Assembly: GCA_947623935.1 (NCBI GenBank)
Contig: CANQIE010000004.1
Span: 1 to 57,619 of the forward strand
Direction: 5' to 3'
DNA length: 57,619 bases
Source of the DNA: an uncultured Bacilli bacterium
Lineage (GTDB): Bacteria > Bacillota_I > Bacilli_A > RF39 > UBA660
How positions within the stretch are numbered: the stretch's first letter is position 1; each line of letters begins with the position of its first letter. Below, in pieces: positions 11,621 to 17,386 of this stretch. The notes beneath the pieces were generated by a model. It was not told where the DNA came from. It was given only the letters and a program-made list of their open reading frames with translations, and searched no databases. The position numbers and the translations under genes were made by a program.

Positions 11621-13072
11621 CTACTCTTCTCCTTTCGGATCTAGCTTTAAGTTTAACTCTTTCTCTAAGAAAGACGCAAACTGATACATTCTTGCTTCAT
11701 CAAAGGCTTTTCCAATGATGTGAAGACCTATAGGCATATGCTCCCTACTAAAACCAATCGGAAGATTGAGTCCAGGAAGTCCTGCCATATTGACGGGAAT
11801 AACTAAAACATCATCCAAGAAAGAGCGCATAGGGTCATCGGTATCTTGTGCTAAATCATAGGCGGTAGTACACGTGGTAGGACCAATAATAAAGTCGTAC
11901 TTTTCAAAACATTTTTCAAAACTTTTCTTCATGTCGTCTCTAATTTGCATCGCTTTATCATAATAAACTTTAGCATTTTCTCCACTTAAAAGATAACTTC
12001 CTACCATGATTCTTCGTTTAACTTCGTCGCCAAAGCCTTCTTCACGGGTTCTTAAATACAATTCTTCGACTTCTTTGGCGTCATCTACACTATGGCCGTA
12101 ACGAACCCCATCGAAACGCGCTAAGTTACTGCTTGCTTCGCCCATGGCAATAATCTGATACAAAGTAACTGCATTCTCGATATAGTCGATATCAACTCTT
12201 TCTACGGTAACACCTAATTTTTGTAATAATGAAACAGTCTCTTCGATTTTTTCTTTGATACTAGGCGACACTACATCACTCATAAAATAATTGGGAAGAG
12301 CTACTTTCATACCTTTGATATCTTGTCCAATAAACCTAGTGTAATCTTCTATTTCATGATAAGAAGAAGTTAAATCATGGTCATCTTGTCCCTCGATTAC
12401 ATTTAATAATAAGGCATTCTCATATACATTTCTACTCATTGGACCAATGGCATCTAGACTTGATCCAAAAGCAACTAGTCCATAACGTGATACTCTTCCA
12501 TAGGTTGGCTTCATTCCAACAAGTCCACAGTAAGAAGCGGGTTGTCTAATACTTCCTCCTGTATCGGTTCCAAGAGCAAGTGGCACCATTCTTGAAGCAA
12601 CAGAAGCTGCACTTCCCCCTGAAGAACCTCCAGTAATTTTAGTTTTATTCCAAGGATTTTTAGGGGCACCAAAATAACTGGTTCTAGAAGTAGACCCCAT
12701 GGCAAACTCATCCATGTTGGTCTTTCCGATAATAATTAAATGTTTTTCTTTTAATTTAGAAACTACGGTCGCATCATAAATAGGAATAAAGTTATCTAAG
12801 ATGTGAGAGGCACAAGTAGTTCTTAAATCCTTAGTTAAAATATTATCTTTAACGGCAACTGGAATTCCAAAAAGAACATTATCTACTTCCATTCCTTCCA
12901 AAGCTTTTGCTTCTTTAATGGCTTCTTCTTTATTTAAGGTAATAAACGCATTGATTTCAGGATCTTTTTCAATTCTTCTAAAAGCTTCTTCTACTAGCAT
13001 CAAAGGAGTTACTTTACCTTCTTTTAAAAGCGTATTAAGTTCTAAAATACTTAAATCTAAATAATTACTCAT
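11621..13072 (-). CDS. gatA: Asp/Glu-tRNA amidotransferase subunit A
   Basis: Amidase signature GGSSGGSAA, GTDTGGSIRQPA, SSNLARFDG. Confidence 0.98.
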   Translation of the reverse strand: MSNYLDLSILELNTLLKEGKVTPLMLVEEAFRRIEKDPEINAFITLNKEEAIKEAKALEGMEVDNVLFGIPVAVKDNILTKDLRTTCASHILDNFIPIYDATVVSKLKEKHLIIIGKTNMDEFAMGSTSRTSYFGAPKNPWNKTKITGGSSGGSAASVASRMVPLALGTDTGGSIRQPASYCGLVGMKPTYGRVSRYGLVAFGSSLDAIGPMSRNVYENALLLNVIEGQDDHDLTSSYHEIEDYTRFIGQDIKGMKVALPNYFMSDVVSPSIKEKIEETVSLLQKLGVTVERVDIDYIENAVTLYQIIAMGEASSNLARFDGVRYGHSVDDAKEVEELYLRTREEGFGDEVKRRIMVGSYLLSGENAKVYYDKAMQIRDDMKKSFEKCFEKYDFIIGPTTCTTAYDLAQDTDDPMRSFLDDVLVIPVNMAGLPGLNLPIGFSREHMPIGLHIIGKAFDEARMYQFASFLEKELNLKLDPKGEE

Positions 13073-13364
13073 GAATCATCACCGGCACTTCTATAAAATT
13101 CCCCTTGGTATGAGGTGCATTCTTTTTAACGTCTTGGAATGTAATTTCTTCTTGTGTTTCATCTTTCGTAGGTTTTGCTTCATGATCTACTGGTGCAATT
13201 AAAAAATCTTCATCGTAATTTTTAACCTCTTTAATTTTATCAATTTCATCTAATAATTTTTTTAATTGGTATTGGTACTTTTCTAAAGTCTTTTCATCTG
13301 ATATTTGAATACGTGCTAAACGTGCTACGTGTAATACTTCTTCACGACTTAATTTATTCTCCAT
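13065..13364 (-). CDS. gatC: Asp/Glu-tRNA amidotransferase subunit C
   Basis: EEVLHVARLARI...NAP...FIEVP; first gene of gatCAB. Confidence 0.95.
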   Translation of the reverse strand: MENKLSREEVLHVARLARIQISDEKTLEKYQYQLKKLLDEIDKIKEVKNYDEDFLIAPVDHEAKPTKDETQEEITFQDVKKNAPHTKGNFIEVPVMIHE

Positions 13365-13482
13365 TTTATCCCTTCTTTCAAGACGTATTTACTATTATAA
13401 CATAACTTCTTCTACATTATAACAAATTTTATGTTCTTTTGAAACTGCTTTTAAAAAGAAAGAAAAAAAGGCCTAAAAGGTC

Positions 13483-13512
13483 TTGCACTATAAAACATAA
13501 GTTTGATATAAT
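13483..13512 (+). promoter_or_regulatory. Sigma-A promoter of toxin-like peptide 1 mRNA
   Basis: TTGCAC-N18-TATAAT with extended TG; conserved in the second module. Confidence 0.7.
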
Positions 13513-13661
13513 TGTATTAGGGAATATCAGTAGTTGAGTGTCTACCTCCAATCTTTATAGAAAGACTAGAGAAAAATAGGATAAAAATCAAAAATTGAAA
13601 ATAATTTATAAGGTTTTGTATATAAAATACTTGACTTTATTATGGGAGGAGGTTTGATATA

Positions 13662-13754
13662 GTGAAAACTAAGACTTTTATTTTAAAAGTTCTCAAGTTC
13701 ATTACTATCATTTTATTTCTCCTTATCATGATGATAGTAGTTATAAAAAAATGA
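13662..13754 (+). CDS. Unannotated 30-aa hydrophobic peptide MKTKTFILKVLKFITIILFLLIMMIVVIKK (putative type I toxin)
   Basis: SD GGAGGAGG at 13645-13652, GTG start, single TM with basic ends. Confidence 0.7.
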   Translation: MKTKTFILKVLKFITIILFLLIMMIVVIKK

Positions 13755-13858
13755 CACTCATTCGCTAGAATAAGTGCCTAAACAAATTTATTTTGGGTAG
13801 ACATTCAACATGACGAAACTGAATGTTCCCCTTTTTATTTTATGCAAGTTTTCTTGCT
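13745..13858 (-). ncRNA. Putative antisense antitoxin RNA 1 (~110 nt)
   Basis: Minus-strand promoter TTGCTA(13893-13888)-N17-TAAGAT(13870-13865) with TG; ends in hairpin GGCACTTATTC-TAGC-GAATGAGTGTC plus T7. Confidence 0.65.
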
Positions 13859-13958
13859 AAATACATCTTATCATAAAAGGTACTAAATAGCAAGCAAATA
13901 CTCTTCTTTAACTAATCAGTATTTCAAAAAAATAACATAAATTTTATAACAAATAGGC

Positions 13959-13988
13959 TTGTAAATCAAAACAACAGTTTGGTATAAT
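13959..13988 (+). promoter_or_regulatory. Sigma-A promoter of toxin-like peptide 2 mRNA
   Basis: TTGTAA-N18-TATAAT with extended TG; followed by TGTATTAGGGAA exactly as in module 1. Confidence 0.7.
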
Positions 13989-14053
13989 TGTATTAGGGAA
14001 ACTTAACAGTTGGGTGCTTGCCTACTTCTTACATAGGAAGGAGGCTGATAGTT

Positions 14054-14137
14054 ATGTATAAGAAAGATTTTTTAATTTTTTCTTTAATTACTATTATTTT
14101 TTTACTTATTGGTCTACTTTTCACGATTGTAAAATAG
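14054..14137 (+). CDS. Unannotated 27-aa hydrophobic peptide MYKKDFLIFSLITIIFLLIGLLFTIVK (putative type I toxin)
   Basis: SD AAGGAGG at 14038-14044 inside a hairpin; single TM with C-terminal Lys. Confidence 0.72.
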   Translation: MYKKDFLIFSLITIIFLLIGLLFTIVK

Positions 14138-14148
14138 CGATATATAGC

Positions 14149-14263
14149 AAAAGAAAAGCACTCAATTTACTTTCGTAGATCGAGTGCCAACCAAATTAAT
14201 GGCGAGTACTCAACATCGCAAAGTTAAGTATTCCCTTTTTTATTTTATGCAAGATTCCTTGCT
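14149..14263 (-). ncRNA. Putative antisense antitoxin RNA 2 (~115 nt)
   Basis: Minus-strand promoter TTGCTA(14298-14293)-N17-TAGAAT(14275-14270) with TG; terminator GCACTCGATCTAC-GAAA-GTAAATTGAGTGC plus TTTTCTTTT. Confidence 0.65.
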
Positions 14264-14307
14264 AAATACATTCTATCATAAAAGATATGAAATAGCAAGA
14301 AAATCCC

Positions 14308-14484
14308 TTACTTTTGATAGATTACCATAGCTGAAAAACAATAGATTTGATCTTCTCCAAACATAGAACAAGAAACATCAAACTTAATATCTACCACCTC
14401 AATCGTGTTGTTCTCACTCAAAAAATCATTAATTGCTTTCTCTAAATCTTTTTCATGGGCTTCATCAAACAACTTCACTTTCAT
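14308..14484 (-). CDS. Sporulation protein Cse60 (DUF2758) family
   Basis: MKVKLFDEAHEKDLEKAINDFL...VVDIKF...CFSAMVIY. Confidence 0.8.
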   Translation of the reverse strand: MKVKLFDEAHEKDLEKAINDFLSENNTIEVVDIKFDVSCSMFGEDQIYCFSAMVIYQK

Positions 14485-14550
14485 ATTTATCACCAAGATT
14501 AAGATAGCAAATAAAATATAAAAAATTTGTCAAAAAAAGAGGATATCCTT

Positions 14551-14973
14551 TTATTCACAAGAATATCCCATTTCTTCAAAGGCTTTTCTTACTTCTGCCT
14601 CGTTTTCATCTTTTAAAACACCTATTTTTTGACCATCTTCTTTACTTAATAAAGAGAAATCAATATGAAGAAAAAAAGAAGTCTTTTCATTAGTCGTTTC
14701 AATTTCTACAAAAGATCCTTTTTCTATTCCTAAATCATAAGGTTTTAAAAGCGTAGTTAACTCATCAACAGTATCTCTGTCGTTTGTATTTAGCGAAGTA
14801 GAAAGATCTATATTTTTAATCTTATTATCTAGAAAAGATAAAACAGCATCTTGCTCCACTACTGGGTTTTCATCATTCAATAGATATTTACAAGTGAGTA
14901 GTTTCTCTTCTTGTTTTCCACATCCTGTTAAAAGGATAAGTAAAAGAAACAAAAGCAGGCTACATTTTTTCAA
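14551..14973 (-). CDS. Lipoprotein of unknown function
   Basis: TTG start after SD GAGGTG; signal peptide with lipobox LTGC; ends GYSCE. Confidence 0.7.
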   Translation of the reverse strand: MKKCSLLLFLLLILLTGCGKQEEKLLTCKYLLNDENPVVEQDAVLSFLDNKIKNIDLSTSLNTNDRDTVDELTTLLKPYDLGIEKGSFVEIETTNEKTSFFLHIDFSLLSKEDGQKIGVLKDENEAEVRKAFEEMGYSCE

Positions 14974-14992
14974 ATAAGACACCTCTATTCTT

Positions 14993-17386
14993 TTATTTAA
15001 CAACAATATTGACAATACGTCCTTTGATGACGATCATTTTAACAATTTCTTTTCCTTCGGTATGACGTTTTACATTTTCTTCACTCATAGCTTTTTCTTT
15101 GATGACATCCTCACTATCATCGACATGAACTTTAATCGTGGCTCTTACTTTTCCGTTGACTTGAACTGCAATTTCTTTTTCATCTTCAACCAATTTAGAT
15201 GCATCATAAGTTGGCCAGGTGCTATAAGTAATGGTATCTTCATGATTTAAGAAAGTTGCCCATATTTCTTCGGTAATATGCGGTGCTACTGGGTTAAGTA
15301 ATTGAACAAAGCCATCCGCATAGCACCTAGGGAATTTGTTCTCTTTATAAATCGCATTAACAAAGACCATTAATTGACTGATCGCCGTATTGAAACTTAA
15401 CTGTTCGTAGTCTTCCGTTACTTTCTTTACGGTCTCATGATAAACTTTTTCGATGGACGGAATATTTTCATCTACAAACGGAATCGTTTCAAACATACGC
15501 CATACACGGTCGATAAAACGTTTACTTCCTTCAATTCCAAATGGATCCCATGGTTTGCTTGCAGAAAGAGGTCCCATGAACATTTCGTACATACGAAGCG
15601 CATCAGCTCCATAGTTTTGAACCATTTCATCCGGATTAACAACGTTACCGCGAGACTTACTCATCTTTTCTCCATTCGAACCTAGAATCATTCCTTGATG
15701 GAACAATTTTTGGAAAGGTTCTTTGGTAGGAACGACACCACAATCGTACAACACTTTATGCCAGAATCTTGCATATAACAAGTGAAGTACGGCATGCTCT
15801 GCTCCTCCTACATACAAGTCTACTGGTAACCAGTGTTCAAGTAATTTAGGATCGGCAATCATATCGTCATTATGGGGATCAATATATCTTAAGTAATACC
15901 AACAAGAGCCTGCCCATTGAGGCATAGTGTTGGTTTCTCTTGTTCCTTTAACACCATCGATTTCAACATTTAAGAAGTCAGGGCAATGTGAAAGTGGACT
16001 TTCTCCTGTAGCACTTGGTTGATAGTTGTCGGTGGCAGGAAGTTCAAGTGGAAGTTCTTCTACATCTACGGTGCGCATCGTGCCATCTTCCATGTGAATA
16101 ATTGGAATGGGTTCTCCCCAATAACGTTGTCTTGAAAAAAGCCAGTCACGTAACTTATATTGAATTTTTGCTTCTCCTACTTTATGTTCTTCCAACCATT
16201 TAATCATCGTGTTGATAGCTTCTTCTTTTGACAAACCATCAAGGAAGGAAGAATTGATGTGCTTTCCGTCTCCTACATAGGCTTCTTTGGTGATATCTCC
16301 ACCATCAATGACTGGAATAATAGGTAAATCAAACTTTTTAGCAAATTCATAGTCTCTTTCATCGTGTGCCGGAACTGCCATGATGGCTCCTGTTCCATAA
16401 CTTGCTAAAACATAATCTGAAATCCAAATTGGAATTTTGTTTCCATTTACCGGATTAATGGCATAAGCTCCTGTAAAGACACCCGTCTTTTCTTTATTTA
16501 ATTCGGTACGTTCCAAATCACTCTTAGAAGCACATACCTTCTTATATTCTTCGACTTCTTTTTGATGATCTTTAGTCGTAATTGCATCGATAAATGGATG
16601 CTCTGGTGATAAAACGCAGTAGGTAGCACCAAACAAGGTATCACATCTTGTGGTAAACACGGTAAACTCTTTATCATAGCCATCGACTTTGAAGCGTACA
16701 TTGGCACCTGTACTCTTACCAATCCAGTTCTTTTGCATTTCTTTCGTTGAAGCTGGCCAATCAACAAGATCCAAATCCTCTAGTAATCGTTCGGCATAAT
16801 CAGTAATTTTAAGTACCCATTGGCGCATAGGTCGACGAATAACCGGATATCCTCCACGTTCGCTTTTTCCATTAATCACTTCTTCGTTTGCTAAAACAGT
16901 ACCAAGTTCAGGACACCAGTTTACTGGAATCTCATCTACATAGGCAAGACCCTTTTCATAAAGTTTCAAGAAAATCCATTGAGTCCACTTATAATACTTT
17001 GGATCGGTCGTTGCTATTTCTCTATCCCAATCGTACGATAAACCAAGGGATTTAATCTGTTTTTTAAACGTCTCAATATTGCGTGCAGTAAACTCTTTAG
17101 GATGATTTCCGGTCGTAATGGCATATTGTTCTGCAGGTAGACCAAATGCATCCCAGCCCATTGGATGAAGTACATTGTATCCTTGCATTCTCTTCATACG
17201 CGATACAATATCGGTTGCGGTATATCCTTCGGGATGACCTACATGAAGTCCTTGTCCTGAAGGATAAGGAAACATATCCAAAATATAATATTTTGGACGT
17301 GAAAAATCCCAAATATCCGTCTTAAACGTTTTATTCTCTTCCCAATACTGCTGCCACTTTGTTTCTACTTTTTTAAAATTATACAT
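14993..17386 (-). CDS. leuS: Leucine-tRNA ligase
   Basis: [14 protein letters not shown] (HIGH motif), [20 protein letters not shown]. Confidence 0.98.

Follow-up and report, generated by a model that had tools for sequence, protein, structure and literature searches.

The 57,619-nucleotide (nt) stretch of DNA analysed here, termed the window in what follows, belongs to the genome of an uncultured member of the Bacilli, and our subject is the gap that separates two of its minus-strand genes, gatC (13065-13364; Pfam GatC, 1.1e-5) and cse60 (14308-14496; Pfam Spore_Cse60, 6.3e-23). This gap of 943 bp holds two tandem units which, judging from their sequence signals, are probably members of an undescribed, multi-copy family that resembles toxin-antitoxin (TA) systems of type I. 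An earlier note, made by reading the letters of the window, had described the gap as a diverged duplication, and the two units do align, with a mean column identity of 74%; the span that it delimited, 13483-14298, extends exactly from the -35 box of the unit-1 toxin promoter to that of the unit-2 antisense promoter. In the following, G000 designates the source genome of the window (1.15 Mb), other G numbers its sampled relatives, C a contig and L a locus.

On the plus strand each unit displays, in this order, a promoter with a TG-extended -10 box, a leader, a strong Shine-Dalgarno (SD) sequence, a short open reading frame (ORF), a hairpin adjacent to the stop codon, and a second hairpin followed by a T-run. 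The leader starts 6 nt past the -10 box, and the predicted start is spanned in both units by a common word, TGTATTAGGGAA (13513-13524 in unit 1, 13989-14000 in unit 2, plus strand). On the minus strand a promoter of the form TTGCTA-17-TA(A/G)(G/A)AT precedes a start predicted at a GCAAG-N4-CTTGC hairpin, from which the predicted antisense RNA runs through the complement of the toxin terminator as far as the stop-adjacent hairpin, where a T-run is found on the minus strand. The earlier note had listed promoter, leader, SD, peptide ORF, convergent promoter, antisense hairpin and terminator for each unit, and every one of these features is present where it placed them.

In unit 1 the toxin promoter, TTGCAC-18-TG-n-TATAAT (13483-13512, plus), was read in the sequence and stands in the register found in most of the 52 modules aligned below. 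The predicted toxin mRNA, of about 323 nt (13519-13841, plus, ends placed from the promoter and the terminator), is lengthened by an insertion of 82 nt (13565-13646, plus) that ends at the SD and was recognized by comparison with G005, G006 and other copies; in the RNAfold structure its 5' end closes on the 3' terminator. The leader segment complementary to both arms of this terminator (13519-13548, plus), identified from folds and duplex analysis, is directly followed by an anti-SD, CCTCC (13546-13550, plus), while the SD, GGGAGGAGG, lies at 13644-13652 (plus), again as read in the sequence. The peptide ORF (13662-13754, plus) has a GTG start and a TGA stop and is translated as the 30 amino acids (aa) VKTKTFILKVLKFITIILFLLIMMIVVIKK; it comes from the ORF list and aligns with relatives from other genera. 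The toxin terminator (13795-13841, plus) has stem arms at 13800-13809 and 13819-13827, followed by CCCC and a T-run, and is helix 2 of the antisense alignment seen from the other strand. Facing it, the antisense promoter TTGCTA-17-TG-a-TAAGAT (13893-13865, minus), whose register is kept in 73 aligned modules, would start transcription about 7 nt downstream, near 13858, to give a predicted antisense RNA of about 114 nt (13745-13858, minus). This RNA would open with the 5' hairpin GCAAG-N4-CTTGC (13844-13857, minus, read in the sequence). After an A-rich spacer it would form a second hairpin, complementary to the toxin terminator, and lastly that of its own terminator (13778-13753, minus, listed by the terminator scan), whose U-run reaches the toxin stop codon.

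Unit 2 lacks the insertion. Its toxin promoter, TTGTAA-18-TATAAT with TG before the -10 box (13959-13988, plus; 10 of 12 scan matches), precedes a predicted mRNA of about 253 nt (13995-14247, plus; minimum free energy (MFE) -70.6 kcal/mol), in which the MFE and centroid structures agree both on closure of the 5' end on the 3' end, leader 13995-14024 pairing with terminator arms 14202-14235, and on a local hairpin that joins the SD (14036-14044) to an anti-SD (14020-14029). The peptide ORF (14054-14137, plus; ORF list and peptide alignment) runs from an ATG to a TAG and encodes the 27 aa MYKKDFLIFSLITIIFLLIGLLFTIVK. The antisense promoter, TTGCTA-17-TAGAAT with TG before the -10 box (14298-14270, minus; 9 of 12 scan matches, register kept in relatives), would yield an antisense RNA of about 115 nt (14149-14263, minus), with three hairpins: one at the 5' end (14249-14262), one complementary to the toxin terminator, and that of its own terminator (14158-14188), followed by a U-run (14149-14157). 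The predicted RNAs fold far better than shuffled sequences (z -5.45 for the unit-2 mRNA, -4.63 and -6.00 for the antisense RNAs of units 1 and 2), and in the window the predicted overlap of the two transcripts, from the stop codon to the U-run of the mRNA terminator, amounts to some 95-100 nt. A look through sequencing runs listed no RNA data for the region, an outcome that speaks neither for nor against expression.

Taken by itself, the window offers a suggestive pattern that falls short of proof. Promoters and terminators were sought with a simple consensus scan using thresholds; the region contains 11 promoter-like sites where shuffled sequences have 6.3 +/- 3.2, a weak excess, and 2 terminator-like sites against 0.4 +/- 0.7. 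By manual count the -35 box of the unit-1 toxin promoter matches the consensus at 3 of 6 places and the unit-1 antisense promoter at 8 of 12, both below the thresholds of the scan. It is because other copies, 12 in the genome and some 300 matches in its relatives, keep these signals in register that the observation rises above chance.

DNA searches brought up further copies within G000, and from 12 aligned copies a model, R1, was built that covers the 5'-most 70 nt of the antisense RNA as predicted; it was restricted to this part since a plain alignment of the full length recovered one helix only. Units 1 and 2 score 82.6 and 80.2 bits with R1. In G000 it gives exactly 12 matches at E <= 1e-8, the next match standing at E 0.03. 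When the same family is sampled with one genome for each genus, 60 of 101 genomes match at E <= 0.01, with 1-15 copies each and about 300 matches overall, and in an order-wide sample, made up almost wholly of this family, 74 of 121 genomes match when G000 is counted. At the stricter E <= 1e-4 of a class-wide sample, 5 of 13 genomes of the own family match, and none of 137 genomes from 25 other families of the class does. For the sampled genomes, to which all these statements of range apply, the modules are thus found only in one family of uncultured Bacilli with small genomes (about 1 Mb); the LeuS protein of the source genome is 74-77% identical to that of uncultured Bacilli and Erysipelotrichaceae-type assemblies. 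The analysis that follows uses 74 distinct modules drawn from the window, from G000 and from about 50 loci of relatives. The earlier note had suggested searching related genomes with a model of the RNA and looking for conservation of the ORFs, and in the copies so recovered the peptide frame is kept, as are the antisense signals, in register. Four aspects described here were absent from its account: the 82-nt insertion of unit 1, the pairing of the two ends of the mRNA, the multi-copy nature of the modules and their variable genomic position.

The modules are frequently in tandem, since by our count about 13 of some 52 distinct loci hold at least 2 and up to 4 of them (2 in the window, 2 on G000:C12, 4 within 1.4 kb at one locus of G085). 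Their position varies: the pair between gatC and cse60 is common to G005 only, at 96% identity, and in five more species of this genus gatC has no module beside it and no cse60 either, so that comparison of the orthologous locus is limited to G005. The neighbours of five other copies in G000 are ordinary genes (GNAT, an SMC_N-domain ATPase, polysaccharide deacetylase, DivIVA, M23 peptidase, DHH), no transposase occurs among the scanned ORFs flanking these copies, and collections of plasmids and phages gave no DNA match to the units. Some copies are in decay. In C8 and in the second copy on C12 (C12b) of G000 the ORF, the SD or the promoter is lost and the antisense part is kept (E 5.5e-12 and 9.7e-9). 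Two further loci of G000, L114 (C28:15323-15792) and L119 (C18:9508-9977), were seen in passing: one copy lacks its stop codon because of a single-base difference and would be read on into the 3' untranslated region (UTR), for a product of 41 aa, and the other looks frameshifted inside the ORF; read from their sequence, these appear as intermediate stages of toxin decay in which the antisense part is kept. Being multi-copy, tandem, patchy, variable in position and partly decayed is typically how type I toxin loci look, and Fozo et al. 2010 searched, among other criteria, for tandem repetition, as reported in the relevant passage of PMC8594479.

What the plus strand encodes can be judged from the same collection. 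In 52 of the 74 modules there is an ORF preceded by a purine-rich SD, with a strongly hydrophobic product (mean Kyte-Doolittle > 1.0) and an end at a fixed distance from the antisense start. The 41 distinct peptides, of 25-30 aa, fall into four or five subfamilies, all of which align to a single consensus, MxKKDFxIxxLIxIILLLxxLLxxxIK. The peptide is built from a hydrophobic helix of about 20 residues, with a basic N-terminus before it and, often, a basic C-terminus after it. Over 116 ORF pairs of equal length and 70-99% identity, which are not independent of each other, the differences at codon positions 1, 2 and 3 number 638, 347 and 815, and the ratio of synonymous to non-synonymous single-base codon changes is 494:487 in the peptide frame, while the two shifted readings give 268:660 and 107:836. 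Such a frame-specific pattern of substitution is, at the level of sequence comparison, that of a translated gene.

The evidence so far concerns the structure of a gene rather than toxicity, and the purifying selection seen on the peptide is as compatible with a useful protein as with a toxin. We must therefore weigh the view that the modules are conserved genes for a small, non-toxic membrane protein with a physiological role, for example in modulating a transporter or a sensor, whose level would be tuned by a cis-antisense RNA; the housekeeping neighbours and the lack of matches to the phage and plasmid collections agree with it. Against this, 12 diverged copies in a genome of 1.15 Mb would be unexpected for a useful micro-protein with a single function, as would tandem arrays, non-syntenic positions among species of one genus and absence from 41 of the 101 genomes of the family; moreover, copies with a decayed ORF keep their antisense part, and the double lock predicted for the mRNA (an SD hairpin combined with closure of the ends, see below) is typical of toxin mRNAs, as the portion of PMC6733600 on hok and aapA describes. 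On balance we consider this view unlikely, and the TA-like reading preferable.

Databases have little to say of the peptides. Seven of them were not found as exact sequences in a collection of 15 billion proteins, and a profile search of 1.84 billion representatives returned 19 matches (best E 1e-6), all of them visibly these very peptides, spuriously extended at the N- or C-terminus and lacking a functional name; a protein atlas gave no usable match for the peptide. Pfam and NCBIfam have no family that reaches its cut-off for either peptide of the window, nor has Pfam any for the 41 aligned peptides. Some of the ORF calls in databases (P0001, P0007, P0009, P0011, P0016) read the TGA stop as W and run into the 3' UTR, and gene callers seem to have used genetic code 4 for some relatives; the long genes of the window are intact under code 11.

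We may now turn to the minus strand, where the signals are the most regular. When 73 modules are aligned, without gaps, on the start of R1, they display a -35 box TTGnnA, a spacer of 17 nt and a TGnTATnAT element in a fixed register before the 5' hairpin. The conserved places of the -35 box are T (89%), T (81%), G (77%) and, at the sixth, A (88%); those of the extended -10 element are TG (84% and 78%), then T (88%) and A (90%) at its beginning and A (82%) and T (84%) at its end, and a purine occupies the predicted start. A terminator, for which a stem of 7 or more pairs, an energy of -7 kcal/mol or lower and a T-run behind the hairpin were required, is present in 71 of the 72 modules with enough sequence. 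The predicted antisense RNA has a median length of 110 nt (range 99-126 nt), and its T-run most often starts 2 nt before the toxin stop codon, so that only its tail touches the ORF. Promoter, 5' hairpin and terminator vary in sequence and are conserved in place. Judged by such signals, the modules would possess what characterizes the class, an antisense RNA with a promoter and a terminator of its own. Many relatives (for example L125, L153, L133 and L137) have in addition, on the antisense strand, a short GC-containing hairpin with a T-run that overlaps the -35 box of the antisense promoter; it is absent from both units of the window, and is possibly an insulating terminator against read-through.

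The structure of the predicted antisense RNA can be examined in the 80 matches aligned to R1 (74 of them distinct). All 13 pairs of the two modelled helices change on both sides; 87.3% of the cells are paired, against 79.6% when columns are shuffled and 12.6-45.6% when partners are slid. On four of five measures the observed value lies beyond all 500 shuffles, while for the fifth, further pair types, 80 of 500 reach it. On the antisense strand 84 cells are G-U, against 34 that would be so only on the toxin strand, 28 of the latter at the outermost pair. Such a distribution is compatible with both strands being folded RNAs.

The predicted mRNA itself has a further property. In all nine intact copies of G000 the MFE fold pairs the first nucleotides of the mRNA with the 3' arm of its terminator, and the next segment of the leader with the 5' arm, the loop of the terminator being bulged out. 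For 52 modules the duplex between leader and 3' end has an energy of -35.4 +/- 4.7 kcal/mol with the cognate leader, against -23.5 +/- 7.2 with non-cognate leaders and -16.0 +/- 3.5 with shuffled ones. Aligned together, these modules start to pair at the predicted +1, 6-7 nt past the -10 box, and in most of them the promoter stands in the same register before the leader. Each of the 27 positions of the duplex shows more than one type of Watson-Crick pair, a count that slips of register may inflate. The duplexes comprise 1370 Watson-Crick pairs, 143 G-U pairs and 7 single A-C mismatches; an inverted repeat drifting as DNA should give G-U and A-C equally, and the imbalance of 143 to 7 therefore points to selection on the plus-strand RNA.

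This last observation bears directly on a second alternative, in which the modules would be non-coding dispersed repeats akin to miniature inverted-repeat transposable elements or repetitive extragenic palindromes, with terminal inverted repeats, and their ORFs, promoters and hairpins mere by-products. Leader and terminator region are indeed mutual inverted repeats, and the copies are numerous, often at contig ends and variable in position. The signature of 143 G-U against 7 A-C is, however, that of RNA, and of one strand; the codon-position and synonymous patterns are specific to the peptide frame, whose consensus is kept across genera; the arms differ between subfamilies yet stay complementary, unlike ends recognized by a transposase; conserved promoters lie outside the repeats; and no transposase is seen in the scanned flanking ORFs. 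We find it very improbable that repeats of this kind account for the modules, and return to a TA-like system as the better account.

Just downstream of the leader segment that reaches the terminator, the anti-SD is predicted to pair with the SD in a local hairpin, and the pairing probability of the SD bases is 0.76 in the modules against 0.49 in 300 ordinary genes of G000. A tight translational lock of this kind fits self-toxicity, and it weighs against a third proposal, that the peptides are exported effectors (leaderless bacteriocins, or peptides similar to phenol-soluble modulins) whose production is regulated by the antisense RNA. Peptides that are short, cationic and strongly hydrophobic, with several variants per genome, would suit such a role. 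On the other side, no gene for immunity, transport or processing lies beside the five scanned copies of G000 or in the window, and an unbroken hydrophobic run of about 20 residues with charges at both ends fits a helix retained in the membrane better than a soluble amphipathic peptide. We accordingly give this proposal very little credence and keep to the TA-like reading.

A number of results weigh against the TA-like reading, and they are best considered together. Twenty-two of the 74 modules have no convincing ORF: 10 have none at the expected place, 3 of these being cut by contig ends, and 12 fail on SD, hydrophobicity or flank, some being visibly decayed. The copies compared are related and hence not independent, so that the p-values and ranks for the leader duplexes, the codon changes and the pairing of the SD overstate the case. 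In unit 1 the start codon is GTG and the insertion has moved the anti-SD about 95 nt away from the SD, and this unit may work differently or not at all. Of the four promoters assigned in the window, the consensus scan lists two (unit-2 toxin, unit-2 antisense), and of the four terminators one (unit-1 antisense). The covariation alignment was fitted to our own model, which favours the structure that it contains, and RNAalifold, applied to a plain MAFFT alignment of 12 full antisense RNAs, returned 7 pairs in one helix only. The cognate leader is the best partner for just 12 of the 52 3' ends, and is among the best five for 32; lower ranks are to be expected because subfamilies share sequence. 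Finally, the SD pairing probability calculated in silico is alike, at 0.78-0.81, for the full-length mRNA, the mRNA with a blocked 3' UTR, the mRNA trimmed by 32 nt and the nascent leader. A translational switch similar to that of SR4 or of hok, which we had considered, is without in-silico support, the masking of the SD being independent of the state of the 3' end. The long-distance pairing would therefore have no visible gating effect on translation in these models, and the roles that we propose for it are guesses. As no translational switch appears in silico, degradation of the duplexed mRNA is favoured as the action of the antitoxin.

The insertion in unit 1 deserves a comment of its own. 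Segment 13565-13646, which sits between the anti-SD and the SD of unit 1, is missing in G006 and also in G005, whose locus is 96% identical apart from it. It recurs with 100% identity over 73 nt at G000:C41:8971-9043, a contig end, before an AP_endonuc_2 (endonuclease IV-like) gene, and over 64 nt at G000:C38:1-64, a contig start, before a paralogue of unit 1; sequences 77-88% similar are found at contig ends in the sibling species G002 (four) and G003 (one), at L168-L172, where they end at an SD and are followed by unrelated coding sequences. Because copies that end at the SD precede unrelated genes, we understand 13565-13646 as a portable, multi-copy upstream cassette, which may be a promoter/operator or a miniature mobile element. 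The cassette, of about 70-82 nt, holds a repeated word, GTATAnAAAATAC. It also contains a TTGAAA-18-TATATA arrangement, not listed by the consensus scan, and may contribute a promoter to the unit-1 toxin gene. The earlier note had seen no mobile element at the locus: this stands as regards transposases and matches to phages or plasmids, and has to be amended for the small multi-copy promoter cassette that unit 1 carries.

Two observations made at the borders of the gap may be added. Between unit 1 and the gatC promoter (13443-13416), a small hairpin at 13469-13483, within 13460-13483, is preceded by an A-run, that is a T-run of the minus strand, and forms a perfect stem of 6 bp in G005; judged by eye only, it looks like a minus-strand terminator shielding gatCAB. 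On the other side of cse60, before leuS, an ORF of 154 aa (14551-15015, minus) has a lipoprotein-type signal and no family assignment, its N-terminus giving weak matches to LPAM_1 and to the SA0632 family.

How do the modules compare with systems already described? The earlier note had pointed to the layout of type I TA systems of Firmicutes, in a family that it did not recognize. The layout is supported, as far as sequence signals go, by a predicted mRNA for a small hydrophobic peptide and a convergent antisense RNA overlapping its 3' end; the ORFs of 30 and 27 aa, with their coding-type substitutions, come within what defines the class, a small (<60 aa) hydrophobic protein made from a short mRNA. 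The family likewise holds as unrecognized, for scans of Rfam, Pfam and NCBIfam returned no known type I toxin or antitoxin family, and in Rfam (E <= 10) nothing came near a gathering score, the best being a chance match to a long non-coding RNA (E 0.096). We found no paper that joins type I TA systems with Erysipelotrichaceae in the literature that we searched, where an earlier listing among the candidates of a survey remains conceivable. By analogy, then, we would regard the modules as a TA-like family of its own, working most like RatA, SR4 or SR5, with an mRNA lock reminiscent of hok and aapA and of different design.

The systems of Bacillus subtilis txpA/RatA, bsrG/SR4, bsrE/SR5 and yonT/SR6 are the nearest in layout: convergent, with pairing at the 3' end over about 100-140 bp, where a predicted overlap of about 100-115 nt is found here, and with a small hydrophobic toxin whose SD is partly sequestered, as is predicted here. 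There is no sequence relation to modules of the TxpA/RatA and BsrG/SR4 type, and no membership in their protein models or Rfam families was found; the peptides described here, of 25-30 aa, are shorter than those of B. subtilis. To our knowledge, after a search that was not exhaustive, closure of the mRNA end to end has not been described for the 3'-overlap families of B. subtilis. The loci of these B. subtilis systems lie in prophage-type elements, whereas the present modules are chromosomal, among housekeeping genes. For SPbeta, the prophage setting is described in part of PMC5848175. The antitoxins of these 3'-overlap systems act through decay led by RNase III, according to the section of PMC6562991 concerned, and SR4 makes its first contact through the loop of its terminator, as stated in an excerpt of PMC3834814; the free hairpin loops predicted here would allow the same first contact. 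In TxpA, YonT, SprG and BsrE/G/H the antisense RNA overlaps the ORF, in the comparison given in an extract of PMC8594479, whereas the one predicted here ends at the stop codon and covers the 3' UTR only.

With hok/Sok of plasmid R1 and enterobacteria, and with aapA/IsoA of Helicobacter, the resemblance lies in the mRNA. Their full-length toxin mRNA is locked by long-distance 5'-3' pairing and local hairpins that mask the SD (PMC6733600, in the part cited above), and a long-distance pairing of the two ends is predicted in silico here as well. The chromosomal aapA/IsoA modules are multi-copy too, with a control that is specific to each module according to the same part of that source. In both systems, however, the antisense RNA lies over the ORF or the 5' part of the mRNA rather than over the 3' UTR, and what the pairing of the ends masks is the SD or an activator of translation; here that pairing uses the arms of the terminator, and the predicted masking of the SD is independent of it. 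The hosts of both systems are Gram-negative, and neither has a sequence relation to the present modules.

The Fst/RNAII pair (par of pAD1), with Lpt and SprA1/SprA1as, provides a third comparison: also from Firmicutes, it has a toxin of about 30 aa with a single helix, a convergent arrangement and a 5' structure that limits translation, all of which find a counterpart here. The two RNAs of Fst/RNAII have a single bidirectional terminator in common and pair by way of 5' direct repeats; here there are two separate terminators, about 45 nt apart in every aligned copy. The Fst toxin has a long charged C-terminal tail, which the peptides described here do not have. As PMC8594479 puts it in the passages on this family, the antisense RNA of Fst does not overlap the ORF, as is also the case here, and the interaction takes place outside the overlap, whereas the region of pairing expected here is the overlap itself.

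With these precedents in mind, we may outline how a module would work. A sigma-A promoter with an extended -10 box would produce an mRNA of about 250 nt for a peptide of 25-30 aa, the signals being present in the sequence. The SD would be held, as modelled in silico, in a local hairpin by the anti-SD lying upstream. After release of the transcript its first 30 nt or so would pair with both arms of its own terminator, in an end duplex of about 27 bp from which the terminator loop is bulged; complementarity and covariation are seen for this closure, which, if formed in the cell, would be expected to make the mRNA more stable and to hide a portion of the antisense target. The convergent sigma-A promoter would likewise produce, from signals that can be read in the sequence, an antisense RNA some 110 nt long, protected by its 5' hairpin and ended by a terminator of its own; being cis-encoded, it would have perfect complementarity to the entire 3' UTR, from the toxin stop codon as far as the U-run of the terminator. 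By analogy with RatA, SR4, SR5 and SR6 of B. subtilis, pairing would probably begin at the free hairpin loops beside the stop codon and proceed to a duplex of about 100 bp, to be cut by RNase III and followed by degradation of the toxin mRNA; the source genome encodes both RNase III and RNase Y. The peptide, if made, would, to go by its size and composition, insert into the membrane and harm the cell.

Leader and antisense RNA can each base-pair with the terminator region. It follows that the leader shares its sense with the antisense RNA's central hairpin, and that the two are bound to be rivals for this region. One may go further, in a tentative vein, and imagine that the toxin mRNA contains a mimic of its own antitoxin: its first 30 nt or so, of the same sense as that central hairpin, would address the same target, and the mRNA would exist in three states, closed on itself (stable and hidden), bound by the antitoxin (degraded) or opened (translated), the balance between them deciding on the moment at which the toxin fires. 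The cassette captured just upstream of the SD by unit 1 and by its paralogue would then give a short mRNA devoid of both mimic and anti-SD, rewiring the toxin gene to another promoter. We regard this extension as possible rather than probable.

Type I TA systems are hard to find, as their peptides and their RNAs both escape annotation, and their known range is narrow, comprising Proteobacteria, Firmicutes and Tenericutes in the overview contained in part of PMC12390103. The many natural variants of the present modules constitute a ready-made set of covariation data, and short orthogonal RNA pairs of this type could serve as regulatory parts (compare the pertinent section of PMC12721322). The family would join an antisense overlap of the 3' UTR, as in Bacillus, with an end-to-end closure of the mRNA, as in hok and aapA. 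We know of no group in which these two principles of control have been described together so far. For the organisms themselves, the modules may take up to about 1% of a genome of 1.15 Mb, and this raises the question of why genomes so small keep a dozen copies.

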